In this document: in pieces, positions 2,354 through 62,639 of the stretch | Layout: each line of letters starts with the position of its first letter | Numbering within the stretch: position 1 is the first letter of the stretch | DNA from: an uncultured Gammaproteobacteria bacterium | Lineage (GTDB): Bacteria; Patescibacteriota; Microgenomatia; UBA10105; UBA927 | DNA: 64,000 nt | Assembly: GCA_964527425.1 (NCBI GenBank) | Contig: CAZGOA010000003.1 | Coordinates: forward strand, 97,048-161,047 | Direction of reading: 5' to 3' | The notes under the pieces: generated by a model | What the model saw: the letters and a program-made list of their open reading frames with translations, nothing else | What the model was told of the DNA's origin: nothing | Databases searched by the model: none | Translations under genes and position numbers: made by a program

Positions 2354-2420
2354 GGCATGAAGTATACCATAGAGTTATGCATCTACAATGTTATTACTCC
2401 AATCTAAAAGTAATCGGAGT

Positions 2421-3365: not shown

Positions 3366-3497
3366 AAAATAATTCCTCCCGGTGAAATTCTATATATTTC
3401 ACCTATAGGACTATTATAATGGAATAAGCATAACGAATGTCAATTTACTAATTCTCTCCTTTATCACTTCATTATTTTTGATACAATCTGTGCATAC

Positions 3498-4397
3498 ATG
3501 AACAGTTCTGTTGTACTTATTATGATTGCTGCATCGCTGTGGGCAATTGATGCACTCATTAGGACGCCATTAACACAAAGTTTATCTCCTATTAGTATAG
3601 TATTTTGGGAACATGTTATTGGGTTGTTTGTGTTAAGCCCGTTTCTAGCCAGTAATATACGAAAATTTTTCTCTTTGAAGGCACGTGATTGGAGCTGGTT
3701 TTTCTTACTCGCTTTAGTGAGCAGTGTAGGTGGAACTGTTTTGTTTACTCAGGCATTATCGACAAGTTTTGCAAGCGGAGATTTTATCACTCCTCTTTTA
3801 TTACAAAAACTTCAACCACTTATTGTTATTACGCTGTCCTGGCTACTATTGAAAGAACGTATAACTCAAAATTTTCTCGTTTCTGCTGCAATTGCTTTGC
3901 TTGGAGGATATTTAATGAGTTTTGGTTTATTAATCCCTCAATTTAATTTGGCTGGTAAAGAACTGGTCGTGTTACTTTCCTTAGGGGCAGCAACTTGTTG
4001 GGCTGTGGGAACTATTGTAAGTAAAACAGTGTTAAAAAAATATACTGTAATGGAAAGCACAATCATTCGTTTTGTGTTAGCTATACCCTTAGCGTTTCTT
4101 GTAGGCAACATATTGAGTCAGCCGGTTAGTGGTATTGGGTCTACTGTTGAATTAGGAAGATTTTTCCTCATAGCGTTGACCACAGGAGCAGCTGCATTAG
4201 GAATTTATTATGTAGGATTAAAAAGAACTCCAGCTCATGTTGCCACAATTGCTGAACTGATGTTTCCGTTAGTAAGCATTTTGATTGGAATTACTTCATT
4301 GAATCCATACGGCGCACCTCAAACTCTTACCCTTCCTCAAATTATTGGTATAGCATTGTTATTGATTGGCGTTGTCAAAAGTACCCGGATATCATGA
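3498..4397 (+). CDS. EamA/DMT-family 10-TM transporter (RibN-like riboflavin importer is a plausible role)
   Basis: About 10 hydrophobic segments in two 5-TM halves, typical of the drug/metabolite transporter superfamily. Stop codon overlaps the riboflavin kinase start (ATGA). Confidence 0.6.
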   Translation: MNSSVVLIMIAASLWAIDALIRTPLTQSLSPISIVFWEHVIGLFVLSPFLASNIRKFFSLKARDWSWFFLLALVSSVGGTVLFTQALSTSFASGDFITPLLLQKLQPLIVITLSWLLLKERITQNFLVSAAIALLGGYLMSFGLLIPQFNLAGKELVVLLSLGAATCWAVGTIVSKTVLKKYTVMESTIIRFVLAIPLAFLVGNILSQPVSGIGSTVELGRFFLIALTTGAAALGIYYVGLKRTPAHVATIAELMFPLVSILIGITSLNPYGAPQTLTLPQIIGIALLLIGVVKSTRIS

Positions 4398-4768
4398 ACT
4401 TACCTGTAACTGTAACCGGCATTGTTGAACGTGGAAATCGAGATGGTACTAAATTAGGTTTTCCTACAGCAAATCTGCGCCTTGACGCACCGCTTAATCT
4501 TGAACATGGTGTGTATGCTGCACGTGTCTTGCTCAAAAATGAAATGCTCCCGAGTGTACTCCATTTTGGTCCTCGACTTGTATTTAATGAAACAACGCCA
4601 CTGTTTGAAGTACACATACTGCATCCCGTACCAGACCTTTATGGCAAACGATTACGTGTGACGTTAACCCACTTTATTAGAAAAACAATGCAGTTTGATT
4701 CACTCAAAGATTTAGTTGTACAAATGGAGCAAGATAAACGCGAAGCTTTTGCATTACTTGAGATGTGA
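4394..4768 (+). CDS. ribF: Riboflavin kinase (stand-alone RibF C-terminal-type domain)
   Basis: LGFPTANL motif, HFGPRL, EVHILH, DLYGKRLRV: canonical flavokinase domain signature; 124 aa, no FAD-synthetase domain. Confidence 0.75.
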   Translation: MNLPVTVTGIVERGNRDGTKLGFPTANLRLDAPLNLEHGVYAARVLLKNEMLPSVLHFGPRLVFNETTPLFEVHILHPVPDLYGKRLRVTLTHFIRKTMQFDSLKDLVVQMEQDKREAFALLEM

Positions 4769-5545
4769 CAAGCCCTTTACAATCGCAGCATCAAATGACC
4801 GGACAAAATATACGGAAGAAATAATTCCATACACGGCAAGCAAACCTAATGCCCTGACAAGCCAGTCATGCGGAAATTGACCTGAATTCATAATCTCTCG
4901 CATACCTTCAAAGGCATAAAGGGATGGGAAAAACTGAGCAACAACCTGCACCCAAGAGGGTAACGTTTCCAGAGGGTAATACACTGCAGAAAACGGCATC
5001 AGAATAAACCCACCTGCCCATGCTAATGATTGAATATTTGTTCCTTTACGTAAAAATAGACCCCCAACAAGAAGTCCAAAAACCCAACCGGTCAGAAGCA
5101 GGATAACTATAGGAATAAGAAACTGAGGAAATAAGGGGAAAACATTCGCTTGATACAATAATAATCCAATACTTGAAGTTACTGCAAACGTCAGCACTAA
5201 TTTCAGTATTCCCAAAAGGAATAACGACACCATCCATTCGCTACGCTTTAGTGGTGTGCTAAAAAGATTCACCAGATTTTCAGACCAAAATTCTTCGAGA
5301 ATACTAACTGTCACTTCGTACTGACCTCGCCACAACACATACCACAAAATTACTCCAAATATAATCATGGAAATATATGCGCTTGTGACATCACCAGATC
5401 GTTCAAGAGCTGCAAATGTCAAACCCCAAACAACAATATCTAATACTGGCCAATAAAAAGCGTCAACCAACTTATCGAGATTATGCCGGAAATGATACAA
5501 ATGCCGCAAAAGCATTGCATAAATTCTTCTAGCTGACATTATCAA
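4754..5545 (-). CDS. ABC-2 type transporter permease
   Basis: 6-TM hydrophobic profile; overlaps and follows the ABC ATPase gene on the same strand. Confidence 0.6.
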   Translation of the reverse strand: MIMSARRIYAMLLRHLYHFRHNLDKLVDAFYWPVLDIVVWGLTFAALERSGDVTSAYISMIIFGVILWYVLWRGQYEVTVSILEEFWSENLVNLFSTPLKRSEWMVSLFLLGILKLVLTFAVTSSIGLLLYQANVFPLFPQFLIPIVILLLTGWVFGLLVGGLFLRKGTNIQSLAWAGGFILMPFSAVYYPLETLPSWVQVVAQFFPSLYAFEGMREIMNSGQFPHDWLVRALGLLAVYGIISSVYFVRSFDAAIVKGLSHLK

Positions 5546-6467
5546 CCTCCCTTTTTGTAGATACAGACAGAAAATAATCTTCTAACGAAGGCTTATCAAT
5601 TGAGATATCCTGGTAAGAAACTCCTCTCGAACTTAAGGCATGAAGAAAATCAGGGATCTTTTCCTCTTCCATGGTTACTGTGATAAATCGTCGAGTTGCT
5701 TTACTATCTAACCCCATGGTTGAAAGGATAGATTGCACACGCTTTAAGCCGTCAGAAACATAGAGTGACACTTCACAATGAGTAAACGTTTTTGCAAGCC
5801 GTTTCGGAGTACCGGTAGCAAAAACTCGACCCTGATTCATAAAAATAACCCGGTCACATAATTCTTCAACCTCTTTCATATTATGAGAAGTGATCAATAT
5901 TGAGGTTTTGTGAGTTTTACGCATTCCAATGATAAATTCTCGTATTAAATAGGCGATATCTGGATCAAGGCTGGCTGTGGGCTCATCAAGCAATACAAGC
6001 TCAGGGTCGTTAAGAAATGATTTTGCTAAGCTAACCCGTGTTGCTTGACCTGCAGACAAATCAAGAAATCGCTTTGACAGTAAATCAATCATCTGAAATC
6101 GTTTGGCTAGTGTTTGAATCTTTTCTTCGCCATGAACGATACTATACAAATGACAGAAAACTCTTAAATTCTCATGGACTGTAAGTGACCACGGCATTTT
6201 CCCATACCCTGACATATAATTAATTTTCCCCAGTATTTCAGTTCTATTAAGCGCCATGGATTTTCCAAAAAATCGAATGTCTCCGCTTGTCGGTTTCATA
6301 AGCCCAAGCAACATTTGTATTGTTGTAGTCTTACCCGCGCCGTTAGGTCCTAAAAGGCCTACAATTTCACCTTTTTTTATAGAAAAGGAAACGTTTTTTA
6401 CTGCTGTAAAATTGGCAAAGACCTTTGTTAATTTTTTAACGGATAATACTGTTTTGTCTTGTGTCAT
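5529..6467 (-). CDS. ABC transporter ATP-binding protein
   Basis: Walker A GPNGAGKTTT, signature LSAGQATRVSLA, Walker B LVLLDEPTASLD, H-loop. Confidence 0.85.
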   Translation of the reverse strand: MTQDKTVLSVKKLTKVFANFTAVKNVSFSIKKGEIVGLLGPNGAGKTTTIQMLLGLMKPTSGDIRFFGKSMALNRTEILGKINYMSGYGKMPWSLTVHENLRVFCHLYSIVHGEEKIQTLAKRFQMIDLLSKRFLDLSAGQATRVSLAKSFLNDPELVLLDEPTASLDPDIAYLIREFIIGMRKTHKTSILITSHNMKEVEELCDRVIFMNQGRVFATGTPKRLAKTFTHCEVSLYVSDGLKRVQSILSTMGLDSKATRRFITVTMEEEKIPDFLHALSSRGVSYQDISIDKPSLEDYFLSVSTKREVDNVS

Positions 6468-8602: not shown

Positions 8603-9289
8603 TTAGAGAGTTTTTATTCTAAAAAAATAAGTTCTATCCATACCAGCCTGTAATAGTGGAATACAAAGTGATATAAAAGCGAGAGAAATAATCCATCCAC
8701 CAATAATATCAGTAAGCCAGTGATGGCCTAAATATACCTTTCCGATACTAATAGTTGTAACTGACACAATTGATATCCCTGTTACAAACAAAAAAAATAA
8801 TTTTTTCTTTATTCGCAAAAAATAATAAGAAAATAAAACTGCAAAAAATAAAGACCGTGAGGCATGTCCAGATGGATAAGAATATTCTTCTTGTACATGG
8901 TATTTTGGGAAAATAGTGATTGGGTTTTTAATCATAAAAAATGGTGGAGCCGGACTTTCTACTTTAGACTTACCGTACATTTCAGCACCTATCATCAGTG
9001 AAAATAATAACGGTATTAATAATGCACCCGGATATATTTTTTTAAACCTGTTCCCAGAAAAATATAGTATTGTAATAAATAAACATAAAAAGATTGACAC
9101 TGTAGGACTTACTAAAAAACCTGCATCTTCAAATATTTCATCCATTTTTGATGGAATATTATCTTGCAAACGCACAGTAAAATCGAAATTAATTTGATTG
9201 AAGAATCCATTTTTTACAACTGCACTAAATCCATAAAAGGATATGAATAATACTGCACTTACTAAGATAAATAGAACTCTAGTTTTCAT
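8603..9289 (-). CDS. PAP2-family membrane phosphatase
   Basis: PAP2 signature motifs YPSGHASRS and GHHWLTDIIGG in a polytopic membrane protein. Confidence 0.75.
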   Translation of the reverse strand: MKTRVLFILVSAVLFISFYGFSAVVKNGFFNQINFDFTVRLQDNIPSKMDEIFEDAGFLVSPTVSIFLCLFITILYFSGNRFKKIYPGALLIPLLFSLMIGAEMYGKSKVESPAPPFFMIKNPITIFPKYHVQEEYSYPSGHASRSLFFAVLFSYYFLRIKKKLFFLFVTGISIVSVTTISIGKVYLGHHWLTDIIGGWIISLAFISLCIPLLQAGMDRTYFFRIKTL

Positions 9290-9359
9290 GTGTTGTATTC
9301 TAAATGTTATTTAATAATAGGTCTAATGGATAGACTGTTTACGCTCTTCAGATTATGCT

Positions 9360-11351
9360 ATGCTCTTTGAAATGAGCGACTTTTTATCTATTGTTTTTGA
9401 TTCAATTCGCTTCATTGTAACAGTCATACTCCTTTTTTATATTCCCGGACGGCTTCTTCTGATAGGTTTTAATATTCATAACAATTTTCTGAAAGAATTT
9501 TTTTATTCAATAACGAGTGGCATGCTGGCATACACCTTTTTAGTATATTTAGTTTCCTGGATACATATTACTGACTTATTTCAATACCTCTATATTGCTG
9601 TAGTACTATTATTAGTTTATAAAAATAGAAATATTCTGTCTTCTTTATTAACAAGTGTTAAACAATTATTTCCATTCTTGCTTATTGGATTTGTCTTCAG
9701 CTTAATAATTACTACGCGGGGTATATGGCAGAATAATTTTGTTTATGAACGCGATGATGTTATTCATCTGGCATATATTTCTGAAATGGTACATCGTTTT
9801 CCACCTGATAATCCAGGGTTTTCAAACGTCCCCTTAATTGGTTATCACTTTTTTCACGATTTTTTAATAGCCAAAATTCATCAAGTAAGTACTATACCCA
9901 TACATAGACTGCATTTTCAGTTTTTCCCCCTACTTATAGGATTTTTATGGGCATTGGGAACATATGTTTTAGGAACAGTCAGAGGAAATTCGAAAAGTGG
10001 ATGGTGGATTCTCTTCTTCGTATTGTTTGGGGGTAGTGCGGCATTTCTGTTTCATTTATTTGGTTATAATCAGGTATCACTTAATGCTGGTCTGGGCATC
10101 GATCAGCCAGTTACTGCGTTACTTAATGGACCATACGCAACATCATTTGTTTTCATATTATTATTTTTAACCAATTTACTGGACTATGTATCCACAAAAA
10201 AAGCTGCTTACTTATGGCTTTTATCCATTGCAACTGGATTAACTCCGATGTTTAAAATTTACGGCGGGTTATTACTTTATGCCGGATTAGGAATGATAGG
10301 CATACATATTCTATTTACCAAAAAGTGGAAACATCTACTCATTCTTATGAGTAGCATCATCTTAACAGCTTGTACATTTTTATTATTCTCGGGACAAGGA
10401 AACAGACTTTTTTATCAACCCTTGTGGGCTCCTCATGCTGTTTTAGAATTTAGTCTTCCATGGTATGGATTTCATGAAAAAATGTATACCTATAAGCAAT
10501 TATCTGTAATGAGAGGAATTATTACCGTTGAATTACATGGACTTATTTTATTTTTATTTGGTAATCTGGGTACAAGATTAATAGGTTTTATACTGTTTAT
10601 GTATTTTCTATTAAGAAGACGCATTAGATTAAATTATTTTGATGTTGTTTTGTTTGCAATGGCATGTGTTTCTATAGTCATTCCACTTTTTTTTATTCAA
10701 AGCGGCAAAGTGTTTGAAATTATTCAATTTGGTTGGTATTACCCCCTGTTTGTTTCGATTTTTGCCGGAATGGGTTTTGCACGACTGTTTAGTGGAATCA
10801 AAAACTTAAAGTTAACATTTCTTTTAATAGTATTAATTGGAATAATGACACTCCCCACTACATATGACAGTATGAAATCGCTCATTTTTAAGTCTCATGT
10901 TATTGCGGGTGAAAACAATGTATTAATCACTCCTAAATATACCGTTATGAAGAAACTCTCTATGATTGGTACTTACGATGATACAGTGCTGGAATTGCCA
11001 CCTTTAACTATGAATCATGATGAACTCAGTATAATAAATTGGTTTAGAAATACAGAACCACTAATGTCCTATTTTGCAAACAAAAGAAGTTTTTTTACTT
11101 CTCAAAATATCGATTTTTTCAACTTAAACTTATCTGAACGGGCAATGCTACTTATTGAGATATTAAAAGCAGAAAAACAATATAGTTCAACAATCGACTC
11201 TTCAAATTTAATTGATGATAGTATTACCAAGATTAAACACAACTCTATACATTTTATTGTTTCAACAGATAAGTTAACAGCAATTCCTCAACATGCAAAT
11301 GTTGAACTCATATATTCTGAAGATCCGTATTATGTTTATCAAATACACTAA
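9360..11351 (+). CDS. Large polytopic membrane protein (663 aa), probable GT-C-fold glycosyltransferase
   Basis: More than 12 predicted TM helices; first extracytoplasmic loop with acidic pair (YERDDVIH) as in ArnT/PMT-type GT-C enzymes; soluble C-terminal domain. Confidence 0.45.
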   Translation: MLFEMSDFLSIVFDSIRFIVTVILLFYIPGRLLLIGFNIHNNFLKEFFYSITSGMLAYTFLVYLVSWIHITDLFQYLYIAVVLLLVYKNRNILSSLLTSVKQLFPFLLIGFVFSLIITTRGIWQNNFVYERDDVIHLAYISEMVHRFPPDNPGFSNVPLIGYHFFHDFLIAKIHQVSTIPIHRLHFQFFPLLIGFLWALGTYVLGTVRGNSKSGWWILFFVLFGGSAAFLFHLFGYNQVSLNAGLGIDQPVTALLNGPYATSFVFILLFLTNLLDYVSTKKAAYLWLLSIATGLTPMFKIYGGLLLYAGLGMIGIHILFTKKWKHLLILMSSIILTACTFLLFSGQGNRLFYQPLWAPHAVLEFSLPWYGFHEKMYTYKQLSVMRGIITVELHGLILFLFGNLGTRLIGFILFMYFLLRRRIRLNYFDVVLFAMACVSIVIPLFFIQSGKVFEIIQFGWYYPLFVSIFAGMGFARLFSGIKNLKLTFLLIVLIGIMTLPTTYDSMKSLIFKSHVIAGENNVLITPKYTVMKKLSMIGTYDDTVLELPPLTMNHDELSIINWFRNTEPLMSYFANKRSFFTSQNIDFFNLNLSERAMLLIEILKAEKQYSSTIDSSNLIDDSITKIKHNSIHFIVSTDKLTAIPQHANVELIYSEDPYYVYQIH

Positions 11352-11359
11352 AAATATAC

Positions 11360-11890
11360 TCACCGTTTGATACGCTTCATAATTTCATAGAGTACGATTC
11401 CACACGACACCATTACATTTAATGAAACGTTAATTCCCCACATAGGCATTTGAACAATTACATCACTTGCATCTAATACTTCCCTGGAAATACCATTGCT
11501 TTCATTACCAACAACAATCGCTATAGGAAATTCATAATTTGCCTGCTGAAAAGACACACTTCTCTCGTCAAGTTCTACAGAAACGATGTTTGCTCCCTGA
11601 GCTTTGCAGCGATCAACAGCCTCTAACGCTGTCTTGCAGTATTCCCATTCAACCCATTGCCATGTGTTAATAGAAGCCTTTTTTATTCGTGAGTTTGGTG
11701 GTGTTAAAGTATCTCCACAAAGATATACTTTTTGGGCTGCAACAGCGTCGGCTAATCTAAAAATTGCTCCTACATTATACGTATCCAGAACATTGTCTAA
11801 TATTATACTTACTGGATTCTTAATTATTGTTTTAATTACATCTGGATTCACTTCTGTAGTACGCAACTGCTTAGCATTCATTTTCATCAT
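11360..11890 (-). CDS. SpoU/TrmH-class RNA 2'-O-methyltransferase
   Basis: SPOUT motifs: LDNVLDTYNVGAIFRLADA, IVVGNESNGIS, MPMWGINVSLNVMVSCGIVLYE. Confidence 0.8.
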   Translation of the reverse strand: MMKMNAKQLRTTEVNPDVIKTIIKNPVSIILDNVLDTYNVGAIFRLADAVAAQKVYLCGDTLTPPNSRIKKASINTWQWVEWEYCKTALEAVDRCKAQGANIVSVELDERSVSFQQANYEFPIAIVVGNESNGISREVLDASDVIVQMPMWGINVSLNVMVSCGIVLYEIMKRIKR

Positions 11891-12070
11891 AGTGCTGATT
11901 ATATCAATTTAAGACTCTTAATTGTTGATATGAATTGTTGGAGAGACCAAAATCAGTTGTACACCAGATCCTTGAGGAACTGGAGTAATAATCGATTTAC
12001 TTTTATAAAAGAAAAATAATACAGTAATGGTTATTATCATTACAAAAAATACAATTATTTTTTTCATATG

Positions 12071-14410
12071 TTAGTTCTTATCTCTTAAACGTATTACTAG
12101 TAGTATCCAAATACTTAAAGTGAATGCAGATAAGAGTATTCCTAAATACAAACTCAACGGTCTATATATGAATTCTATTCTATTACTTCCTTTAGGCACA
12201 AGAATTCCCCTAAAGGCATAATTAGTCCTATATATTTTCGTTTCTTTTCCATTTATGTACGCTCTCCACCCAGGGTAATACGTATCCGTCAATACCAAAA
12301 AATTATGTTCTTGTAAATTTGTATTAACAACAATGTTTTGTGAGGAATACTCATCAACATCTACTGGAATAATATTCTTATCAGAATTAACGAATTCGAT
12401 ATATTCTTCTACAACTGCAGTTTTGTGTGGATCAAAAGAATTTGAGAATACATATGCTAATAGTTCATCTTCTGTTTTCGTTACTACATTACTAGATAAA
12501 TACGCTCTGGGCAATCTACTAGCAAAGTCAGTGATGGTCCATGTTTCATCATTCCATACTGTTTGCGTATTTAGTCCACTTGATTTTTTTACTACATATC
12601 CAATAGACACTAATTGGGATAAGCGATCTAACCTATCGATTATGTCTTGATTTTCTGTATAACTATCCATAATGATATCGCTGCGACTAAGACCACGTTC
12701 TTTGTTTTCGGTGTGAGCATATGAGAATAATTCTCCATACCTGCGAATATATAATGGATCATAATAATTACTGTCATACCATCCATAATACGTAGCAAAA
12801 TCTGTGGAAAACTGTGCTTCTTTTTCTCCTTTAACTCGAACCGGAGAAAGCTGTTTTAACTGAGTCATTATCTGATGGGAAGGCATAATATGTTGCTTAG
12901 TGGAAAAGGGTAAAAATTTATTTGCATTGTATATACCACTGCATATCACCACAAGCAAACAACTCAATGCGATATATATTTTTTTATTGGGAAAAAAATA
13001 ATAACTGATTACAGAACATAGTATAAACAAACTCACAAACGTATATTCTAGAATTAAATTTCTAATTGCAACATTCATGCAATTAACTTGATTTACACAA
13101 CTTATATTAAAGATGAATAAACCAACGAGCAGTAATACTAGTAAAAGAAAACTAAGCCAGATAAACAGAATCTTCTTTATTTGATTACTATGGATGATCT
13201 CAAGTATATGTTGTATTCCGAAACCGGTAAGTATAGCAATACTAAACGTTGTTAGTATATAGATCCTTGTGGGAATACTCGTGCTTATAATTGGTAATGG
13301 CAAATTATACAGTAGTGATGTTAACGGAGATGTAAATGAAACCAATAAAGTAAGAAGTGTCATTACTGTAAAAAACTTTACGATAGTATCTTTAAATAAA
13401 AACCACACAGCAATTACACTAAATAGTATTGGAACCGTTCCAACCGAAGCTAGCGTTTCTATGTAATCGGTATAACCCCAGAAATTATATGTCCCGGGAT
13501 TACCAAAAAAATTCGGAATTAAAACTGTAAAAAGATGCGAAAAAGGCACAAGAAACTTCTCAAAAATAAATAGTGACGATATCTGAGTTACATTTGCTAA
13601 AGAATATAATTCAAAGGTGGGCAGCAACTGGATACTTGATAAGCCTAAACCAATTAATACGAATACTGTATACAATAATAACGTAGAAACACGTACACCC
13701 CGTATAATACTTATATGTTTCCATAACCGTATACACGCGTATAGAAAAACAGTAGCACATATATATACTGAAATTTGAGGCTGTACACTCACCAATAAAA
13801 ACCAAGCCGAAAACGGTACTACCATAGCACTACCTTGGACCTGTTTTTTAACTAGTAATTCAATGCCTGATAATAATAGAGGAAGAGTAATTAGCGCATA
13901 AATATAATCTCCATAAATTGTTCTTCCAATGACAAATCCAGAAAAACACAAAACACTCGAGGAAATCAGAGAAGCTAGTTTTGATAAACCTATAGATCTT
14001 GTATACCAATACGTCGATAAAAATAACAATGGAAACTGAATAATTATATACCAGGCCCAACCCACTACCCCACCCAACAGTAACAATGAAAAAGGATTTA
14101 AAAAACCAGAATGTAAAGTAGCGAGTAATGGTTGGCCTGCTCCATTGAAAGGATTCCATAAGGGCAATAGACCTTCTTTTAATTGTTGAATCGCTAAATA
14201 TTTCTGCGGATATATTTGTCTAAATATATCATCACCTATGGGCTTATGAGGTATAGTAGGAACGCCATTAATAGTGTTTTCAGATTTCCAGGGTTCGTAA
14301 AAAGATACCATAAAATTCCCTGGCATAGGAATTTCACCAAAAAAGAAAAATCGATGAAATACTCCAATGGTTAGTAACAGAGCAACAAGTACTGGCATTA
14401 AATGTTTCAT
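12071..14410 (-). CDS. YfhO-like large membrane protein (779 aa), probable GT-C glycosyltransferase
   Basis: N-terminal loop LLPLWNPFNGAGQPLLATLHSGFLNPFSLL resembles the YfhO-family conserved loop; many TM helices and a C-terminal soluble domain. Confidence 0.45.
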   Translation of the reverse strand: MKHLMPVLVALLLTIGVFHRFFFFGEIPMPGNFMVSFYEPWKSENTINGVPTIPHKPIGDDIFRQIYPQKYLAIQQLKEGLLPLWNPFNGAGQPLLATLHSGFLNPFSLLLLGGVVGWAWYIIIQFPLLFLSTYWYTRSIGLSKLASLISSSVLCFSGFVIGRTIYGDYIYALITLPLLLSGIELLVKKQVQGSAMVVPFSAWFLLVSVQPQISVYICATVFLYACIRLWKHISIIRGVRVSTLLLYTVFVLIGLGLSSIQLLPTFELYSLANVTQISSLFIFEKFLVPFSHLFTVLIPNFFGNPGTYNFWGYTDYIETLASVGTVPILFSVIAVWFLFKDTIVKFFTVMTLLTLLVSFTSPLTSLLYNLPLPIISTSIPTRIYILTTFSIAILTGFGIQHILEIIHSNQIKKILFIWLSFLLLVLLLVGLFIFNISCVNQVNCMNVAIRNLILEYTFVSLFILCSVISYYFFPNKKIYIALSCLLVVICSGIYNANKFLPFSTKQHIMPSHQIMTQLKQLSPVRVKGEKEAQFSTDFATYYGWYDSNYYDPLYIRRYGELFSYAHTENKERGLSRSDIIMDSYTENQDIIDRLDRLSQLVSIGYVVKKSSGLNTQTVWNDETWTITDFASRLPRAYLSSNVVTKTEDELLAYVFSNSFDPHKTAVVEEYIEFVNSDKNIIPVDVDEYSSQNIVVNTNLQEHNFLVLTDTYYPGWRAYINGKETKIYRTNYAFRGILVPKGSNRIEFIYRPLSLYLGILLSAFTLSIWILLVIRLRDKN

Positions 14411-15759
14411 AAACGAATAAGAGTCCGTAACAACTTATAATAAATCCAAAAGCCTATTACCACTGTACAAATTGCTATCGATTGCTGAAACGTATGACTT
14501 CTCATCAGGGAATACCACATATCAGGTAAAGCCATCGGATGCCATACGATAACTAAATTAATAAAATTTAACAATGTCAGTAAAATTAATTCATAATATA
14601 ACGATACCCCGAGACTTGCAGTTAATATAAGCGGTATATAAACAGGATATAAATATCGCTCATGCATTTTAGGCAATAATAAATAGGACAGTAATGCAAT
14701 TCCTGTAAACGCAATAACACTCATGAAGGTAAACAATGTATGATTATTAACAAGCTTTCTTTTTTTGTATATAAAAAAATATATTGGAAATATAAAGAGA
14801 CCGTAAAAAAACATTGCTATCTGTTGCAAAGATAATGAAAACAATATTGTATTAATTTCCGGAGAATGTTCTAAAGAAACAGAACTTAGCGAAAATAAGT
14901 CAGGACCATTTCCAAAAACGATCGTTGGCTGAAATACAACCCACCAAACATTAAAAGCAAATGCTGTTATATTGTTCATTTCGCCTGAACCGTGCGCACG
15001 TATAAAATGTGCATACCATGTAAAAATATCAGTCGTAATTGGCAGCGTTATAACGATAACAGAGAGTAAAACAAGGAAAAGTAGCACAATCCATTTTTTA
15101 ACACTAAATTTCTTAATAAATAAGAATAATACAAAAAAAGGTGCAAAAATGATCAACGAAAGTTTAACGAATAAAGAATACAGGTAAAAAAGAGATGATA
15201 AAATAAATTTTTTGGAAATAAAAAAGTAAAGAGAAAGTATAAAAAAAACGTTATTTACACTATCCATCTGTCCCCAAAAGGCACTATTGTAAATCACACT
15301 TGGATTGAATAGAAACAGTGAAGCACCCAGTAAAGATCGTCCGCGATGCTTCGTTAATCGGAGTACGCTCAAATAAAGAAACACACTTATAATACAATCA
15401 GAAATAAAAGAAGGAATACGAAATAATACGGTTAAAAAAGGGCCATTTATCCACGTATTAGATCCAGGAATTATCCCAAATACAGCAAATAACACTTTAC
15501 CTATCTGTATCCAAATCATGTACATAAGCCAGAGGCAATATAAAAATAACGGCGGCAAGTTGTTTGCGTATGTTCCAAAACTTAAATATTCAGGATGCGT
15601 ATAAGTATCTGTGAAGGAGTGAATAAATGCTATTTGTGCCCAGTCTTTGTACCGTAAAATATCTGTATTTTCTCGATATTCTAATGCATAGGAAATAGTA
15701 ACGATTCTAACAATGCACCCTAAAATAAATAACAGTATAAAATAATAATGCCCTCTCAT
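14407..15759 (-). CDS. Polytopic membrane protein, DUF2029/GT87-like putative glycosyltransferase
   Basis: LFNPSVIYNSAFWGQMDS loop motif typical of DUF2029 GT-C mannosyltransferase-like proteins; 4-nt overlap with the YfhO-like gene. Confidence 0.4.
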   Translation of the reverse strand: MRGHYYFILLFILGCIVRIVTISYALEYRENTDILRYKDWAQIAFIHSFTDTYTHPEYLSFGTYANNLPPLFLYCLWLMYMIWIQIGKVLFAVFGIIPGSNTWINGPFLTVLFRIPSFISDCIISVFLYLSVLRLTKHRGRSLLGASLFLFNPSVIYNSAFWGQMDSVNNVFFILSLYFFISKKFILSSLFYLYSLFVKLSLIIFAPFFVLFLFIKKFSVKKWIVLLFLVLLSVIVITLPITTDIFTWYAHFIRAHGSGEMNNITAFAFNVWWVVFQPTIVFGNGPDLFSLSSVSLEHSPEINTILFSLSLQQIAMFFYGLFIFPIYFFIYKKRKLVNNHTLFTFMSVIAFTGIALLSYLLLPKMHERYLYPVYIPLILTASLGVSLYYELILLTLLNFINLVIVWHPMALPDMWYSLMRSHTFQQSIAICTVVIGFWIYYKLLRTLIRL

Positions 15760-15779
15760 GGTAAACGGGTGCAGGATAC

Positions 15780-17828
15780 TTACTTAATATCTTCTTTCTT
15801 CCAAGCTGCAAAGGTACATTTTGGATAATTGCTACATCCATAAAACATTTTACCTTTTCTTGTCTTTTTCATAACCATTTCACTCCCGCATGTTGGGCAT
15901 GGAATATTTATTTTTTCCAAGAACTGACGGGTATATTTACATGTTGGAAAATTTCTGCAAGCAATAAATTTCCCGAATCTTCCCATTTTTATAACTAATT
16001 GACCACCACAATCAGGACACTGTTCATCAATTGTTTCTTCTACTACTTTTACTTTTTCTGCAATATCTTCTGTAGTTTGTATATCTTTTTCAAACGACTG
16101 ATAAAATTCTTGAATAACGGGCACCCATTCTCTTTCTCCATTGGCGACTGCATCCAACTTATCCTCCATTCCAGCTGTAAAAGGCAAACTCATTATTTCT
16201 GGAAAATATTGCACTAAGAAGTCAGATACTGACTTCCCCAATTCTGTTGGAATTAATTTCTTATCTTCTTTGGTCACATATTGTCTTTCAATGATTGTAG
16301 AGATAATCGGAGCATACGTACTTGGTCTTCCAATATCTTTTTCTTCTAATGTTTTTACAAGACTTGCTTCTGTATATCGTGGAGGAGCCGACGTTTGATG
16401 ACCTTCATGACTGGTTGATGAAAGTTCTACACTCTGCCCTTCTATAACTTCCGGGATAATTATATCTTCAGAATCTCTCCCCGAAACTTTTAAATATCCA
16501 TCAAATACAATAACTGATCCTTTTGTTTGAAATTGATATCCATTCGAACTAGATACAGTTATTGTTGTTGAATTAAACAGTGCTTCTTTCATTTGAGAAG
16601 CAATAGAGCGTTTCCAAATAAGTTCATATAAGCGAACATGATCTCGATTAAGCTCTTTTTTACCTTCTAATGAAGACCAAAAAACAGAAGTATTCGTAGG
16701 TCTAATAGCTTCATGAGCTTCTTGAGCAACTTTAGATTTTGTTGTGTATGTTCTTGGCTTTTCAGGGAGATAAGAATTTCCAAAATCTTTTGCGATAAAT
16801 TCTCTTGCATCATCTATAAATTTCTGAGATAAATTCACACTATCAGTACGATGATAGGTAATAAAACCTTCTTCATATAAACGTTGAGCAGTTTGCATAG
16901 TTTTCTTTGACGAAAAAGAAAGCCTACGTCCAGCGTCCTGTTGTAAAGTACTCGTGGTATAAGGTGCTGGTGGTGAACGTTTTACTTCACGCCTATCTAC
17001 TGACTTAATAATAAATGGTGCTTTAAAATCCGTAATTAGCTGTTTAACCTGTTCTTCTGATGCAATAGAGGTTTTTGATGTAGAATATGATCCATCAAAT
17101 AACTGCAGGGTAACCGTTTCTTCATATTTAATTCCATCTTTGCTTACTAAATCAGCGATAATTTTACTCTTTCCCACTGAAAATGACCCAGCTATTGTCC
17201 AGTATTGTTCTTTGATAAATTTCTCAATCTCTCGTTCTCTTTCAACTAATAAACGAACTGCAACTGACTGCACTCTTCCTGCAGATAACCAGCGTTTGGA
17301 TAATTTTTTCCATAACAACGGAGAAAGATTATAACCGACTAAACGATCTAGAACCCGGCGCGCCTGCTGGGCATCGACCAGTTTCATATCTATTGTGCGT
17401 GGATTTTTTAAAGCCTCTTGAATGGCACTTTCAGTAATCTCATGAAACACGATGCGGTTATAACTTTCTATATTTGCTTTTTGTTTCTCCTGTTCATCTT
17501 TCTGTTGCTTTGTCTTTCGACCCTTCGCCTTTATCGACTGCAGTACATTAGCGACATGCCATGCGATAGCTTCTCCTTCGCGATCAGGATCAGTAGCAAG
17601 AATGATTGAATCTGCCTTTGACGCGATAGCTTTTAATTCAGAAACTCGTTTCTGTTTATCTTTTGGGATAATATATCGGGGTATAAAACCGTTACCTGTA
17701 TCAACTCCTAATTCTGATTTAGGCAGGTCACGAATATGTCCTACACTTGCTTCTACAGAATATTTACCTTTCAGAAATTTACTTAAGGTTTTTGCTTTTG
17801 TTGGTGATTCAACAATAATAAGATTCAT
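15780..17828 (-). CDS. topA: DNA topoisomerase I
   Basis: TOPRIM N-terminus MNLIIVESPTKAKT...GHIRDLP; active-site region; C-terminal zinc ribbons (CPDCGG, CPTCGSEM, CSNYPKC). Confidence 0.9.
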   Translation of the reverse strand: MNLIIVESPTKAKTLSKFLKGKYSVEASVGHIRDLPKSELGVDTGNGFIPRYIIPKDKQKRVSELKAIASKADSIILATDPDREGEAIAWHVANVLQSIKAKGRKTKQQKDEQEKQKANIESYNRIVFHEITESAIQEALKNPRTIDMKLVDAQQARRVLDRLVGYNLSPLLWKKLSKRWLSAGRVQSVAVRLLVEREREIEKFIKEQYWTIAGSFSVGKSKIIADLVSKDGIKYEETVTLQLFDGSYSTSKTSIASEEQVKQLITDFKAPFIIKSVDRREVKRSPPAPYTTSTLQQDAGRRLSFSSKKTMQTAQRLYEEGFITYHRTDSVNLSQKFIDDAREFIAKDFGNSYLPEKPRTYTTKSKVAQEAHEAIRPTNTSVFWSSLEGKKELNRDHVRLYELIWKRSIASQMKEALFNSTTITVSSSNGYQFQTKGSVIVFDGYLKVSGRDSEDIIIPEVIEGQSVELSSTSHEGHQTSAPPRYTEASLVKTLEEKDIGRPSTYAPIISTIIERQYVTKEDKKLIPTELGKSVSDFLVQYFPEIMSLPFTAGMEDKLDAVANGEREWVPVIQEFYQSFEKDIQTTEDIAEKVKVVEETIDEQCPDCGGQLVIKMGRFGKFIACRNFPTCKYTRQFLEKINIPCPTCGSEMVMKKTRKGKMFYGCSNYPKCTFAAWKKEDIK

Positions 17829-57590: not shown

Positions 57591-57654
57591 GGATTGTATC
57601 TACAGACGAGAAAGAATGTCAACGAAAACAATCAATTTTTTTCAATCGTTTCTT

Positions 57655-57694
57655 CCGATCCGGGAGCGGATGAGGCTACCGATCCGGGAGCGGA
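57655..57694. promoter_or_regulatory. Two copies of a 16-nt palindromic element (CCGATCCGGGAGCGGA) 24 nt apart in divergent galU / large-secreted-protein promoter region
   Basis: ATCCGggagCGGAT inverted repeat at 57657-57670, near-copy at 57681-57694; GC-rich island in AT-rich intergenic DNA. Confidence 0.35.
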
Positions 57695-57775
57695 AATACT
57701 AGAGGCTGTGCTACCTGTTGTGAAATTATTGTCTTGTCTATATCCTACAGGTATAATTTGGTATTATTAGTGCAC

Positions 57776-60430
57776 ATGAAAAAGAGAATTCTACAATTCG
57801 TCGTATTGCTTTATACGACAATCTTCTTCACCACATCTGTAATTGCTACGAAGGGTGGTATTAACGTTGGACCATATTATGATCAATTCCCATTGGTGTC
57901 AGCTGCACTTGGACCGGGCTCCTGGGTGTATGCACTCGGATGTCCAGCAGATGTGGCACGCATGGAGACTGCTTATAGTAGTACCTCCAATCTGAACCTA
58001 ATGATTAGAGCCTATTTAAAGGCAGGCGATGTAGGCACAACAGAACAGGCTGTTCAATTGGCTAAAGACTGGGGACAGGCTCTCAGAGCCCTAAATACAC
58101 CAAATATTGTGTACTTTGTTCCTGCCAATGAAATTAATAACCCTGTTGAAGGATTTGCAGAGCGATCAACCGGACGGTTTAATGAAACAGCATTTGATAA
58201 TCTCCAAACCTATTTAACAACGCTTAGTCAGGAAATTGCCGATGTAAGAGGCACAAAAATAGTTTTATTATCCCCTACTGTTGATCCTGGATTTCTATCT
58301 GATAAGGCTGAAGCACAAAGACCATTTATGCAACGAATCCCTTGGGATAGCTATGATGGAACAGCAGTATCTATGTACGGTGAATATTCGGGACTGTCAC
58401 TCAATACAGCCGCTCACCCAGTAAAACAAGGTGATTTTACCCAATTGCCATTATTGGGAGTAAGCATTACAAAAGGACTCTATATAGTTGAAACTGGTGT
58501 CAGAAACACCAGTGATCCGGGAGTGTTATACGCAGAAAACACCCCCCAGATTATTGATTATCTTTCAGTTCAGACACCAAGCTGGAATGACTCTGTAAAG
58601 TCAGCCATTATTTTCTCTTACAATCCAGATGAAGGCGGAGACAGAAATCCCTGGATTTACAGTGCAACCGGAGTGCTCAATGCACTTAAAAGTAAGGGGG
58701 CTGGGCCACCTGTGCGTCCAACAAATGTAGGACCAGTGGGAAGTTTTGATGGATTAACAGGATGTGTATCGGAAAGTGAAACACCGATATTTGCTGATAA
58801 AGGCGATCAAAACGAACGTGTTAATTTAAACATTCGTCAGACCAAATTGTATAATTCTGCCGCAGCACTATCGGGACTGGCACAAGTATTCTATGGTGAC
58901 GCAAATTATTTTGTTGACCAAGTTTCAGCTGCCATTGCGGCAATCAGACCGAATGGCCCTGGCGTTCTTCCTGATTTCGTTCTTGAAAAGAATGTGTTAG
59001 CAGACACCTTGCCTCAACTACTTCCGGGTGAATATCAAGTACTAACTCAAAAAGAAGAACTTCCATCCCCAGGAAAAATTGGTATAAAACTTGATACCGA
59101 ATCCGCCCCCGCTTCTATACGAGCTTCAGTATATACTCAAAGAGAACAACTGGATACAACAGGTACTGCCAACCAAATTGTAGTAACCCAACAAGTTATT
59201 GATGGAAAAACTGTTGCTCAACCAGCCACCAATGTGGAATGGGCAAAACCGTTACGATCTCTAAATACTGTCTATTGTGCAGTCTCGGCCAACTGTAAAT
59301 TAACGCCAAGTGAGGGTAATGTTGCAAATTTAAGAAGGCCACCACAAATTCTTGCACCTGGAACAGTGCCGAATCAATCAAATACTGGAGAGTCCGTTCA
59401 AACACAGCTAACACCATCCGCTGGTGAAATTCAGTTTAATGAAAACAATATCGACTTATTAGTAAGAATTTTAGCTGACTTAAGTCCTGATCCTTCAACT
59501 GAACAAATCACTGCCAATGCTGAAACTGGATTTGGACTCGTTTCGGAAACGTATATTTCTGACTTTACACCTCCAGAATATAAAGTCGATGGGAAAAACT
59601 ACATTAATGCCAGACTTCCCTACCAGGTGCTTCCGGATTTTTCCCGCAATGCTCGAATGGAAAATGCGTATTCGACAGGCGGCAATGTTGAGGGTCTTAA
59701 TACAATAGCCTTGGTCGTTGAGGATGGTAAAGGTATGGAAGATGGATACAACAAAGTGCTGTGTAGTTCTGTACCATACAAGTCGCCTGAATGGTATAAA
59801 CACTGTTCTGAAAATCTTACACCAAACACCAGTGACTGGGCAATTAATGGAGAAACATCGCCAGTTTCACTCCCTGTTACCGTTCCTCTTGACTCTACTC
59901 CACTTGGGGCAGCTATGACTGAGGCCAGTAGAGGAAAAGCCCCTGCGTGTGTTTTGCAGGCTGTAAACTATATTGAGAATCCAAATTGGACTCCAACAAC
60001 ATCCTGTACCATTAATGCCTGCAGCGCTGCCGGACCGTTTCAAATTACAACAGGTATAGATGGGAACGGCAATACTACTTGTCCACGTTGCGGCTCACTT
60101 GGATACTGTCCGGATGCATGGCCAAATAATTGGCCGATCAATTCCAGTCAGCCTAGCCCGTGTGATGCAAAATTTGCAGCATCTGTGGCTATTGACCTAT
60201 ATAAATCAAAAGCAAGCTACTGGACTGCTCGAAACTTAGGTATAGCACAAACACTATCAGAGAATGCTTCAATTGAATCACAAAAAAACGCAATAATCTT
60301 AGGTGGAGATAGTTATTATGGCAGCTCAGTCAGCATACCTCGTCTGGGAGGATGTTCATATGGAGAGTTTGTCTATAAACACTGTACTGGCGGTAGCTAT
60401 CAATGTGGCGGAGCTAGACCACGTCTATAG
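57776..60430 (+). CDS. Large secreted protein (~885 aa) with Cys-rich C-terminal region; hypothetical (possible cell-wall-active/lysozyme-like C-terminus)
   Basis: ATG at 57776 gives MKKRILQFVVLLYTTIFFTTSVIA signal peptide (ORF-track start 57734 is TTG). C-terminal 200 aa has ~14 Cys and an ...IENP...SAAGPFQIT... segment reminiscent of lysozyme-like folds. Confidence 0.6.
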   Translation: MKKRILQFVVLLYTTIFFTTSVIATKGGINVGPYYDQFPLVSAALGPGSWVYALGCPADVARMETAYSSTSNLNLMIRAYLKAGDVGTTEQAVQLAKDWGQALRALNTPNIVYFVPANEINNPVEGFAERSTGRFNETAFDNLQTYLTTLSQEIADVRGTKIVLLSPTVDPGFLSDKAEAQRPFMQRIPWDSYDGTAVSMYGEYSGLSLNTAAHPVKQGDFTQLPLLGVSITKGLYIVETGVRNTSDPGVLYAENTPQIIDYLSVQTPSWNDSVKSAIIFSYNPDEGGDRNPWIYSATGVLNALKSKGAGPPVRPTNVGPVGSFDGLTGCVSESETPIFADKGDQNERVNLNIRQTKLYNSAAALSGLAQVFYGDANYFVDQVSAAIAAIRPNGPGVLPDFVLEKNVLADTLPQLLPGEYQVLTQKEELPSPGKIGIKLDTESAPASIRASVYTQREQLDTTGTANQIVVTQQVIDGKTVAQPATNVEWAKPLRSLNTVYCAVSANCKLTPSEGNVANLRRPPQILAPGTVPNQSNTGESVQTQLTPSAGEIQFNENNIDLLVRILADLSPDPSTEQITANAETGFGLVSETYISDFTPPEYKVDGKNYINARLPYQVLPDFSRNARMENAYSTGGNVEGLNTIALVVEDGKGMEDGYNKVLCSSVPYKSPEWYKHCSENLTPNTSDWAINGETSPVSLPVTVPLDSTPLGAAMTEASRGKAPACVLQAVNYIENPNWTPTTSCTINACSAAGPFQITTGIDGNGNTTCPRCGSLGYCPDAWPNNWPINSSQPSPCDAKFAASVAIDLYKSKASYWTARNLGIAQTLSENASIESQKNAIILGGDSYYGSSVSIPRLGGCSYGEFVYKHCTGGSYQCGGARPRL

Positions 60431-60489
60431 CTTTGAAAGCTGTCAAAACAAGCTTTGACTTTTATCTTATAAATTGATACTATTGACAT

Positions 60490-60516
60490 ACCCCTCAAAG
60501 GGGTGTTTTGTTATTT
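60490..60516 (+). terminator. Rho-independent terminator after the large secreted-protein gene
   Basis: CCCCTCaaaGGGG hairpin + TGTTTTGTTATTT. Confidence 0.5.
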
Positions 60517-61415: not shown

Positions 61416-62639
61416 TTAATACGTTTGATCATTAATGCGAAATCCCAAAGAGGTAATCAGTTCATAAGTGAATTTTAAACGATCATTCACTGTCATTTCA
61501 GGCAACATTTGACGCATTCTTCCTTGAAGTATTAGTAATCTATTAAATCCAACCTGATATTGAGCTTTACGCTGAATATCAGTAATAGCCTGAAGTATTC
61601 CTTCAGGTAATCGCTTTCTATTATTTGATGCAGACGTCATTATATGAAAAATTTTAATAAAATTTTCAGCGATTAATTCATGCTGTTTAAACACTTCATT
61701 TAATAATTCATTGCTGAAGCTAGTTTTTTTTGCATGTATCTCAAACAATCGAAGTATATTTGCCCAAACAAGAGGATCTGGTGACACTGAACGAAATAAC
61801 TGCTTGAGTTCTTCAACATCAACGTTTGTATTAAGGTACCCGACAGATCTTTCCCCTACAAACAGACGCGATTGCCATTCTGGCAAGGTAGTTGAACTTG
61901 AGAAAGGAATAACTAAATACCCTTCACTATCAACTGGTACCGGCGTCGGATTATATGAATCCTCTCCCTGTACAATTGTTCCGTCATCAAACTCCTCGGA
62001 TAATTCAATAGTTAAATCTGAAGTCAACGAAAGATTTTCTGAACCCATCATCGCAAACAGCTTTTGTTTTTTTTCTTCAGGAATTGCACCTATAGATTCT
62101 TTATGTATAGCTTTGTATAAATTATTAACAGTTACCCATAAGTCCATTCCCTGAATACGTGTTTCTCTAAACACATCCATAAATTTTTGTCCTTTACTGC
62201 GAGCATAGGCCTGCAATACGTATGTTAAATTTGCTACTATTATTTTCCTTTGTGAAAATGTTGTATTACCCTTAAAAAAATCAGTAACGATGCTACTGTA
62301 CTTAATTAATATCTCTGCCTTCTTTTTTTCTGTTAATGGTCCTCCACCTGCTTTAATCTCTTCACGATGAACTATATACGGTACAATACTCTCATCTTCA
62401 TTATCTGGTTTCACATGATTTATCCCACGCCCTAATTCTTCAAAAAAAGACTGAAACACTGGTTCATCAACAAACAAGAAATTACGAGCAGAAAGTACCT
62501 CATAATAAGAAGTTACGTTCCTTATATTTTCAATAATTTTCCCCCTTGTAACGGGATCTTCAATATTTAACCAATCAAATGAGAAATTTCTATTATTGTC
62601 TGTTTGATCAGGTACCGATGGAAGCTCAGGAATATGCAT
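61416..62639 (-). CDS. hypothetical cytoplasmic protein (407 aa) encoded antisense between nusG and rplK
   Basis: Long clean ORF, no recognised motifs. Confidence 0.55.
   Translation of the reverse strand: MHIPELPSVPDQTDNNRNFSFDWLNIEDPVTRGKIIENIRNVTSYYEVLSARNFLFVDEPVFQSFFEELGRGINHVKPDNEDESIVPYIVHREEIKAGGGPLTEKKKAEILIKYSSIVTDFFKGNTTFSQRKIIVANLTYVLQAYARSKGQKFMDVFRETRIQGMDLWVTVNNLYKAIHKESIGAIPEEKKQKLFAMMGSENLSLTSDLTIELSEEFDDGTIVQGEDSYNPTPVPVDSEGYLVIPFSSSTTLPEWQSRLFVGERSVGYLNTNVDVEELKQLFRSVSPDPLVWANILRLFEIHAKKTSFSNELLNEVFKQHELIAENFIKIFHIMTSASNNRKRLPEGILQAITDIQRKAQYQVGFNRLLILQGRMRQMLPEMTVNDRLKFTYELITSLGFRINDQTY

Follow-up and report, generated by a model that had tools for sequence, protein, structure and literature searches.

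A predicted two-domain cell-wall glycanase encoded between galU and secE-nusG in a Microgenomates-type Patescibacteria genome

What is the large, apparently exported protein encoded between galU and secE on contig CAZGOA010000003.1 (assembly GCA_964527425.1), and does its gene belong to the genome that carries it? The stretch analysed, hereafter the window, comprises 64,000 nucleotides of this contig (positions 97,048 to 161,047, forward strand). It has 36.9% GC and contains a bacterial 16S rRNA gene, tRNAs, and genes for topoisomerase I and a penicillin-binding protein (PBP) transpeptidase, as well as galU and secE-nusG-rplK. The gene in question is flanked by divergently transcribed galU upstream and by secE, nusG and rplK downstream, and looks monocistronic. 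A first-pass annotation, made from the letters alone, took its product for a secreted Cys-rich orphan of foreign origin. On the evidence assembled below we think it fairly probable that the product is a bifunctional cell-wall glycanase exported by Sec, joining a barrel like those of glycoside hydrolase clan A (GH-A) to a divergent, Cys-rich, lysozyme-like domain, and that it is native to a candidate phyla radiation (CPR) genome.

The list of open reading frames (ORFs) and their translations give an ATG start at 57776, a stop codon at 60428-60430 and a protein of 884 amino acids; the ~885 residues first reported describe a real ORF with its stop codon counted in. The start Met is identical in the alignment of all three full-length relatives (P0002-P0004). 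A TTG at 57734 was dropped in favour of the ATG because these orthologues begin at the same Met. The N-terminus (MKKRILQFVVLLYTTIFFTTSVIA, followed by TKGG) reads as a basic n-region, a hydrophobic core and a small-x-small site, and positional orthologues in other species have canonical AxA signal peptides, in agreement with the signal peptide proposed at the outset. It looks as though the 884-residue protein is exported by Sec, with putative cleavage after residue 24; residues 1-24 may instead serve as an uncleaved anchor.

The C-terminal domain was modelled with AlphaFold2 (AF2) from a 30-sequence alignment, with a predicted local distance difference test (pLDDT) score of 90 and a predicted template modelling (pTM) score of 0.87. 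The model opens with two helices; a small beta region and a loop of 37 residues lacking regular structure come next, and a long central helix and two more helices complete it. A Foldseek search of the PDB with this model returned mostly lytic transglycosylases and goose-type lysozymes, none individually significant: 15 of the 17 top matches belong to the lysozyme superfamily, 13 of these to glycoside hydrolase family 23 (GH23; Slt70, MltF, and goose, salmon, cod and ostrich g-type lysozymes, at template modelling (TM) scores of 0.4-0.5) and the others being the phi6 lysin and FlgJ. In the BFVD library of viral structures, most named matches are LT_GEWL, SLT, lytic transglycosylase or endolysin proteins (best E 0.018, probability 0.87). 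Across 73 relatives of the domain the conserved positions are E734 (98%), C744, N747, C749, A751, G753, P754, Q756, G760, C769, C772, C778, C796, Y847, G849 and Y862. G753 stands 19 residues past E734; the equivalent spacing is 15 in the E. coli Slt70 sequence and presumably 19 in goose lysozyme. Further on, S-Y-Y-G at 846-849 (Y847 95%, G849 98%) is a looser match to the A-Y-N-x-G motif.

When the family profile was aligned by hhalign to a template of five E. coli SLT domains (slt, emtA, mltC, mltD, mltF), it scored P 0.0086, in a register that lays 'IPaCVLEgV..IEg' on 'i....l.ai...ES' and 'sAaGPFQIT' on 'gasGLMQI', placing E734 on the catalytic Glu of Slt70, MltC, MltD, MltE and MltF. Thirty-two controls, comprising a reversed template, the unrelated N-domain profile and 30 column-shuffled templates, gave P values of 0.25-0.65, none of them below 0.25. 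Set beside the GH23 enzymes and their kin (Slt70, MltC, MltE, MltD; SLT PF01464; goose-type lysozyme), the domain shares a Glu at a helix end followed 15-19 residues on by G-x-[MF]-Q, a later Y-x-G motif, the order of helix, small beta-sheet and long helix, its top fold matches and the correct hhalign register. It differs in lacking a Pfam SLT match at the level of hidden Markov models (HMMs), in TM scores of 0.4-0.5, in the residue after the Glu (G, T, S or N here, an invariant Ser there), in GPFQ where those enzymes have GLMQ, and in its ten Cys and the 37-residue Cys-rich loop between the beta region and the central helix. Scans of 30 C-domains against Pfam, PHROGs and NCBIfam gave scattered sub-threshold matches, including an internal virion protein with an endolysin domain (E 0.05) and, for one member, RpfC (E 0.0014). 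The C-terminal domain is thus supported as a predicted lysozyme/SLT-like fold, on a branch so divergent that sequence searches of Pfam, NCBIfam, PHROGs and PDB all miss it. The first-pass annotation had picked out a segment here (IENPNW...CSAAGPFQITTG) as lysozyme- or SLT-like and had proposed a candidate cell-wall-active protein; the segment is borne out by the near-invariance of E734, the GH23-dominated fold lists and the hhalign result, and given these the proposed function seems reasonable.

The same domain had been described as carrying ~14 Cys in its last ~200 residues. It is indeed Cys-rich, and the count is 10 in the last 200 residues, 12 in the last 225 and 16 in the whole protein. 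The ten Cys of the domain are conserved. Four of them, C769, C772, C778 and C796, cluster in the insertion and could form disulfides or a metal site. Among the others there are signs of pairing: C860 and C877 are lost together wherever either is missing (Table 1), and of the 9 sequences without C725 or C870, 5 have neither. Such paired loss points to disulfides, a probable C860-C877 bond among them, and to an extracellular C-domain. Additional partial matches to the Cys-rich part of the domain profile were seen elsewhere within the C-module proteins of four loci (L008, residues 184-229; L009, 152-226; L022, 605-704; L026, 456-528), and the Cys-rich segment may exist as a separate, repeatable module.

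The N-terminal region, initially thought to be without recognisable domains, turns out over residues ~25-320 to be a widely shared module resembling a TIM-barrel glycosidase. Among 64 aligned N-domains the invariant or near-invariant positions are N30, W50, R78, W99, P116, N118, E119, P167, Y201, E239, G241, Y282 and W293. An Asn-Glu after strand 4 together with a Glu in strand 7 is the signature of the '4/7' retaining glycosidases of clan GH-A, and N118-E119 and E239 would occupy these places; the motif is NEI in the window protein and NEP in most relatives. The full-length AF2 model, built from a 4-sequence alignment (pLDDT 38 overall), has eight alternating strand/helix units over residues 28-306, where pLDDT is 50-88. 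With this weak model Foldseek returned mostly clan GH-A barrels, namely the GH79 heparanase 5bwi (E 5.4e-4) and members of GH1, GH113, GH53, GH26, GH2 and GH5. One homologue, P0016, passes Pfam PF11790 over the part that covers the motifs (23.4 bits against a gathering score of 21 bits), with sub-threshold matches for P0006 (E 0.019) and for 3 of 23 aligned N-domains (best E 7e-4). We take PF11790 to correspond to the beta-1,3-glucanases of CAZy family GH128. The likenesses to PF11790 and clan GH-A are therefore N-E after strand 4, the Glu in strand 7, eight predicted beta/alpha repeats, a homologue above the gathering score and fold matches to GH79, GH1, GH5, GH26, GH53 and GH113, whereas the window protein itself falls below the Pfam threshold, has NEI rather than NEP, and belongs to a family that is restricted to Patescibacteria and fused to lysozyme-like domains. 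Judged on these motifs, the N-domain is a putative GH-A-like relative of PF11790 and no formal member of that family.

It is important to weigh against these two assignments the results that speak the other way. Single-sequence searches of the whole protein against Pfam, NCBIfam and PDB found nothing. For the C-domain, Foldseek gave no single match at E<=1e-3 and TM scores only of 0.4-0.5; the hhalign probability is just ~5% on the database-calibrated scale of HH-suite; none of 30 family members matches Pfam SLT; and the family profile has no match in the PDB. For the N-domain, the window protein has no PF11790 match at threshold and lies below every curated threshold in Pfam, NCBIfam and PDB HMM searches, its structural support derives from a poor model, and the Foldseek list also includes TIM barrels that are not glycosidases, such as allulose epimerase. 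The N-domain family profile returned nothing meaningful from the PDB.

These weak matches lend something to a reading of the protein as a non-catalytic surface protein or adhesin, made of glycan-binding pseudo-enzymes or ending in a metal-binding Cys-rich domain rather than a lysozyme. No active enzyme family is matched significantly in the HMM searches, the fold E-values are weak, and C-x2-C-x5-C-x17-C could be a Zn site. However, N118, E119, E239 and E734 are 98-100% conserved in distant relatives, along with GPFQ and YxG, which would be unusual for pseudo-enzymes, and we consider this reading quite improbable.

The protein is an orphan, as first described, at full length only: among 5.8 billion clusters there are three relatives of the full-length type, at 87%, 51% and 44% identity. 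The label does not hold for the terminal domains, for which an exhaustive HMMER scan of 1.84 billion representatives recovered at least 174 representative relatives at E<=1e-3. These split into two sets, matching either residues ~1-320 or residues ~680-884, and eight proteins (P0005, P0006, P0009, P0013, P0016, P0037, P0059 and P0067) have both modules around unrelated middles. By their distribution in sequence databases, the N- and C-modules appear to be two independently mobile modules that have been repeatedly joined. The ~380-residue middle region of the window protein has no match in Pfam, NCBIfam or PDB, and is mixed alpha/beta in the low-confidence AF2 model. The 51% and 44% relatives (P0003 and P0004, from loci L003 and L004) share residues 1-680 with the window protein and have another C-terminal region from residue ~680 to the end, that is, a domain replacement. 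This alternative C-terminus has no Pfam match and no hhalign similarity to the Cys-rich lysozyme-like profile.

In a further homologue of the N-domain, P0029, the C-terminus is a genuine SLT_3 lysozyme-like domain by Pfam (E 4e-8); hhalign found no similarity between the C-domain profile and the single proteins P0029 and P0004. Because P0029 ends in SLT_3, the GH-A-like barrel would have been joined to lysozyme-like modules at least twice, and this repeated pairing strengthens the reading of the window protein as a bifunctional wall glycanase.

A scan of species-representative genomes placed the C-module in 20 loci. Wherever the record names a lineage, it is Patescibacteria, Microgenomates, Gottesmanbacteria, Roizmanbacteria or Shapirobacteria. 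The 87% orthologue (L002) stands ahead of secE-nusG-rplK, and in six loci (L008, L010, L012, L013, L015, L016) the C-module gene lies between divergent galU and nusG-rplK; synteny is partial in L009, with nusG downstream, and in L011, with galU upstream. The slot between galU and secE-nusG-rplK is kept in at least nine other Patescibacteria loci, with relatives down to ~39% identity. At this slot all keep the C-terminal lysozyme-like domain, while the N-terminal half is swapped between species: the window, L002 and L008 have the N-module, and L009-L016 lack it.

Eleven co-assembly third party annotation (TPA) metagenome-assembled genomes (MAGs) titled 'uncultured Gammaproteobacteria bacterium' carry this CPR-restricted gene (L008, L010, L012-L018, L027), seven of them in the galU / secE-nusG arrangement, part of which is also seen in L011, a MAG named as Gottesmanbacteria. 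The Gammaproteobacteria titles on these co-assembly MAGs are probably placeholder mislabels.

Is the gene foreign, then? The idea that it is a horizontally acquired effector gene betrayed by its base composition began from a correct observation: at 43.0% GC against a mean of 36.9% (z 2.4) it ranks first among 54 window ORFs. NNC codons are also slightly over-represented, and codon choice has a z of -2.85 if gene length is not corrected for. The excess lies at codon position 2 (46.9%, z 2.4) and less so at position 1 (z 1.1), whereas GC at third positions (GC3) is 29.8% (z 0.75, rank 12 of 54). Recoding the protein's own amino acid sequence with the codon usage of the other 53 window ORFs predicts 41.7% GC, leaving a residual of +1.3 points (z 0.88). 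Amino acid composition alone thus predicts about four fifths (~79%) of the excess; the protein is rich in Ala, Gly, Ser, Thr and Pro, and its higher GC follows from this. Codon usage, compared across the window ORFs, is likewise ordinary, with synonymous choice deviating by 0.05 nats per codon (rank 8 of 54). In three other assemblies, too, the orthologues have a higher GC than their own flanks, with GC3 of 26-32%, the locus arrangement is conserved across species, the relatives whose records name a lineage are all Patescibacteria, and searches of 50,697 phage records, of 72,556 plasmids and of IMG/VR contigs turned up no relatives. Composition, orthologue behaviour, synteny and this lack of phage, plasmid or viral relatives all disfavour a recent foreign origin, which we rejected as very improbable; the gene is most likely native to a Microgenomates-type Patescibacteria (CPR) genome. 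A GC anomaly confined to codon positions 1-2 gives no warrant for inferring horizontal transfer.

The mechanism that we infer for the glycanase, from activities, substrates and biological target to signal-peptide cleavage and disulfides, would run as follows. Exported by Sec by way of its signal peptide, the protein would consist of three parts: the barrel, the ~380-residue lineage-restricted region and the lysozyme-like domain. In the barrel, N118-E119 as acid/base and E239 as nucleophile would support a retaining double-displacement mechanism. In the C-domain, E734, at its helix end, would protonate the glycosidic bond between N-acetylmuramic acid and N-acetylglucosamine (MurNAc-GlcNAc), with the GPFQ and SYYG motifs lining the cleft; outside the cell, the 37-residue Cys-rich insertion and the C860-C877 disulfide would lend the domain stability. 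The C-domain would then cut peptidoglycan, and the N-domain a second wall or surface glycan.

Whose wall would be cut is a separate matter. The same enzyme could be a host-directed lysin of an episymbiotic CPR cell, opening the partner's wall for attachment, feeding, or uptake of DNA or protein; we treat this as a genuine possibility that falls somewhat short of even. Retention of the C-domain while the N-half is swapped at a fixed slot resembles target-adaptive modularity, and the family occurs only in Patescibacteria. For Vampirococcus, a CPR predator, it has been proposed that the host wall is breached by secreted peptidoglycan hydrolases and a lytic transglycosylase (PMC8080830), and in Ca. 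Southlakia lysozyme and peptidase homologues are reported to be essential for epibiotic growth (cited in PMC12102498). On the other side, the gene has housekeeping genes for neighbours, and the window contains no toxin/immunity or secretion-system partner for it. Alternatively, the enzyme could act on the cell's own wall, as an autolysin or space-maker for division or for envelope machines, or as a VirB1-like helper of a CPR type IV secretion system (T4SS) or pilus apparatus. The PBP transpeptidase in the window indicates that the organism makes peptidoglycan, so a self substrate is available, and the constitutive-looking housekeeping neighbourhood would suit such a role. In L022 a homologue with both modules directly follows a same-strand run of seven small ORFs, of which the two tested both match Pfam T4SS_pilin, and the gene for P0004 lies ~1.4 kb from VirD4-, PrgI- and TraC-like genes; moreover, in most Patescibacteria VirB1 homologues are seldom linked to virB4, and other glycosidases might fill their role (PMC12102498). 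However, the neighbours in the window and in nine syntenic loci are galU and secE-nusG with no T4SS genes, ten scanned window ORFs (both flanking unknowns included) have no T4SS domains, and a housekeeping autolysin would not be expected to swap half its protein between species. We regard the own-wall role, too, as less likely than not. Host- and self-directed action are about equally balanced overall, with a slight lean to the former.

The L022 locus, from a Shapirobacteria MAG, has its seven tandem small ORFs (90-143 amino acids) at 791-3507 and the 977-residue homologue at 3526-6459; the two small ORFs that match T4SS_pilin are the last of the seven. The family may be linked to a CPR type IV secretion or pilus apparatus. 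The two-domain wall hydrolases of T4SS (PrgK, TraG of pIP501, VirB1-like; PMC12102498) are comparable in that they too are large, are secreted or anchored, and pair a lytic-transglycosylase-like domain with another that degrades the wall, and some relatives of the present family (L022, L004) adjoin T4SS pilin or VirD4 genes. They differ in that their second domain is a CHAP or M23 peptidase whereas here it is a predicted TIM-barrel glycosidase; here, too, the lysozyme-like domain is C-terminal and the window gene lies outside any T4SS cluster.

Table 1. Predicted features of the 884-residue gene and its flanks, in window coordinates.
Feature	Position	Strand	Basis
Two direct copies of CT(T/A)CCGATCCGGGAGCGGA	57652..57694	+	Divergent intergenic region between galU and the 884-aa gene; 2 x 19 nt, 24-nt period
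Promoter-like TTGTCT-17-TATAAT	57729-57757	+	Consensus scan
Extended -10-like TGGTATTAT	57759-57767	+	Consensus scan; ends 8 nt ahead of the ATG
CDS, secreted modular glycosidase (predicted)	57776..60430	+	ORF list and translation; 884 aa plus stop; start Met common to P0002-P0004
Signal peptide (putative), residues 1-24, MKKRILQFVVLLYTTIFFTTSVIA	57776..57847	+	Read from sequence; positional orthologues with canonical AxA
N-terminal domain, residues ~25-320, clan GH-A-like (beta/alpha)8 glycosidase (predicted), nearest Pfam PF11790 Glyco_hydro_cc	57848..58735	+	
N118-E119, predicted acid/base motif	58127..58132	+	100% and 98% conserved in 64; after strand 4 (112-115)
E239 (IVETG), predicted nucleophile	58490..58492	+	100% conserved in 64; in strand 7 (235-244)
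Middle region, residues ~321-699	58736..59872	+	Shared only with P0002-P0004, P0007 and P0135
C-terminal domain, residues 700-884, divergent Cys-rich lysozyme-like (GH23/SLT-like; predicted)	59873..60427	+	AF2, fold matches, hhalign
E734, predicted catalytic Glu	59975..59977	+	98% of 73; last residue of helix 25-35 (domain model); aligned to the Glu of SLT 'ES'
G753-P-F-Q756, putative counterpart of SLT G-L-M-Q	60032..60043	+	G753 100%, P754 90%, Q756 91%; hhalign on GLMQ
Cys-rich insertion, residues 760-796, C769-x2-C772-x5-C778-x17-C796	60053..60163	+	Cys 97-100% conserved; no helix or strand, pLDDT 77-93
C860...C877, inferred disulfide pair	60353..60406	+	Both missing together in 31/31 sequences lacking either
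Intrinsic-terminator-like hairpin and T-tract	60488..60516	+	Hairpin 60488-60506, 8-bp stem, 3-nt loop; directly ahead of secE

Upstream of the gene, beyond the promoter-like elements of Table 1, the sequence AATTTGGTATTATTAG is one that the window shares with L002 and L003. A related motif, TTGTCAATTTGnTAnnAT, stands 6-10 nt ahead of the start in L008 (~3277-3306), L010, L012, L015 and L016, and takes the form AATTTGGTATTAT in the window (57755-57775); it is kept even where the encoded N-terminal halves differ. This conservation so close to the start codon suggests an extended -10 promoter and a putative leaderless or near-leaderless mRNA. The GC-rich repeat further upstream was originally described as a palindromic pair. 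The pair is present, as a direct repeat with only short internal inverted arms, and its predicted RNA fold is not significant (z -0.87). It occurs at this one place in the window (3 matches against 0.07 expected); only the 87% relative (L002) shares it, other species do not conserve it, and it could be a site at which a regulator binds. The Logan contigs for L001, which is the same strain, and for the 87% relative both start at the second repeat copy, that of L001 seven bases before it, which suggests instability of repeat copy number or of assembly. Downstream, the terminator proposed just ahead of secE was found as a hairpin followed by a T-tract, in a region that folds at -22.4 kcal/mol (z -2.1).

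Elsewhere in the window, a 407-residue ORF on the minus strand (61416-62639) lies between nusG and rplK and interrupts the usually contiguous secE-nusG-rplK-rplA. It is conserved in L001 and L002 and has no Pfam match. The stretch at ~9000-16000 has lower GC (30-33%) than the remainder; it includes genes for a YfhO-like membrane protein (12071-14410, minus strand) and a PAP2 phosphatase (8603-9289), and two large ORFs (9360-11351, plus strand; 14407-15759, minus strand) without a Pfam match. The stretch is a possible envelope glycosylation island.

CPR bacteria account for much of the diversity of bacteria and seem to live attached to other cells, and the enzymes with which they remodel or breach walls are largely unannotated. 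Here, in a large secreted protein that would be listed as 'hypothetical', two glycosidase folds can probably be recognised; one of them, a lysozyme-like family, was missed by Pfam, NCBIfam and PDB sequence searches. One could speculate, tentatively and with the chances against it, that the C-module founds an undescribed, Patescibacteria-specific, disulfide-rich branch of the lysozyme/GH23 superfamily and that, in Gottesmanbacteria-like Microgenomates, it marks a 'secreted lysin slot' fixed in position between galU and secE-nusG, at which the N-half is exchanged between species, in this case for a GH-A barrel. The enzyme would then supply the missing wall-breaching activity for episymbiotic contact with the host, or substitute for VirB1 in the CPR type IV system. 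The breadth of the family, with at least 174 clusters, and its conserved chromosomal position make it a candidate for wall degradation in Microgenomates. Its members provide a seed alignment for annotating many dark CPR proteins, and with it a handle on the cell-wall and host-interaction biology of the CPR.

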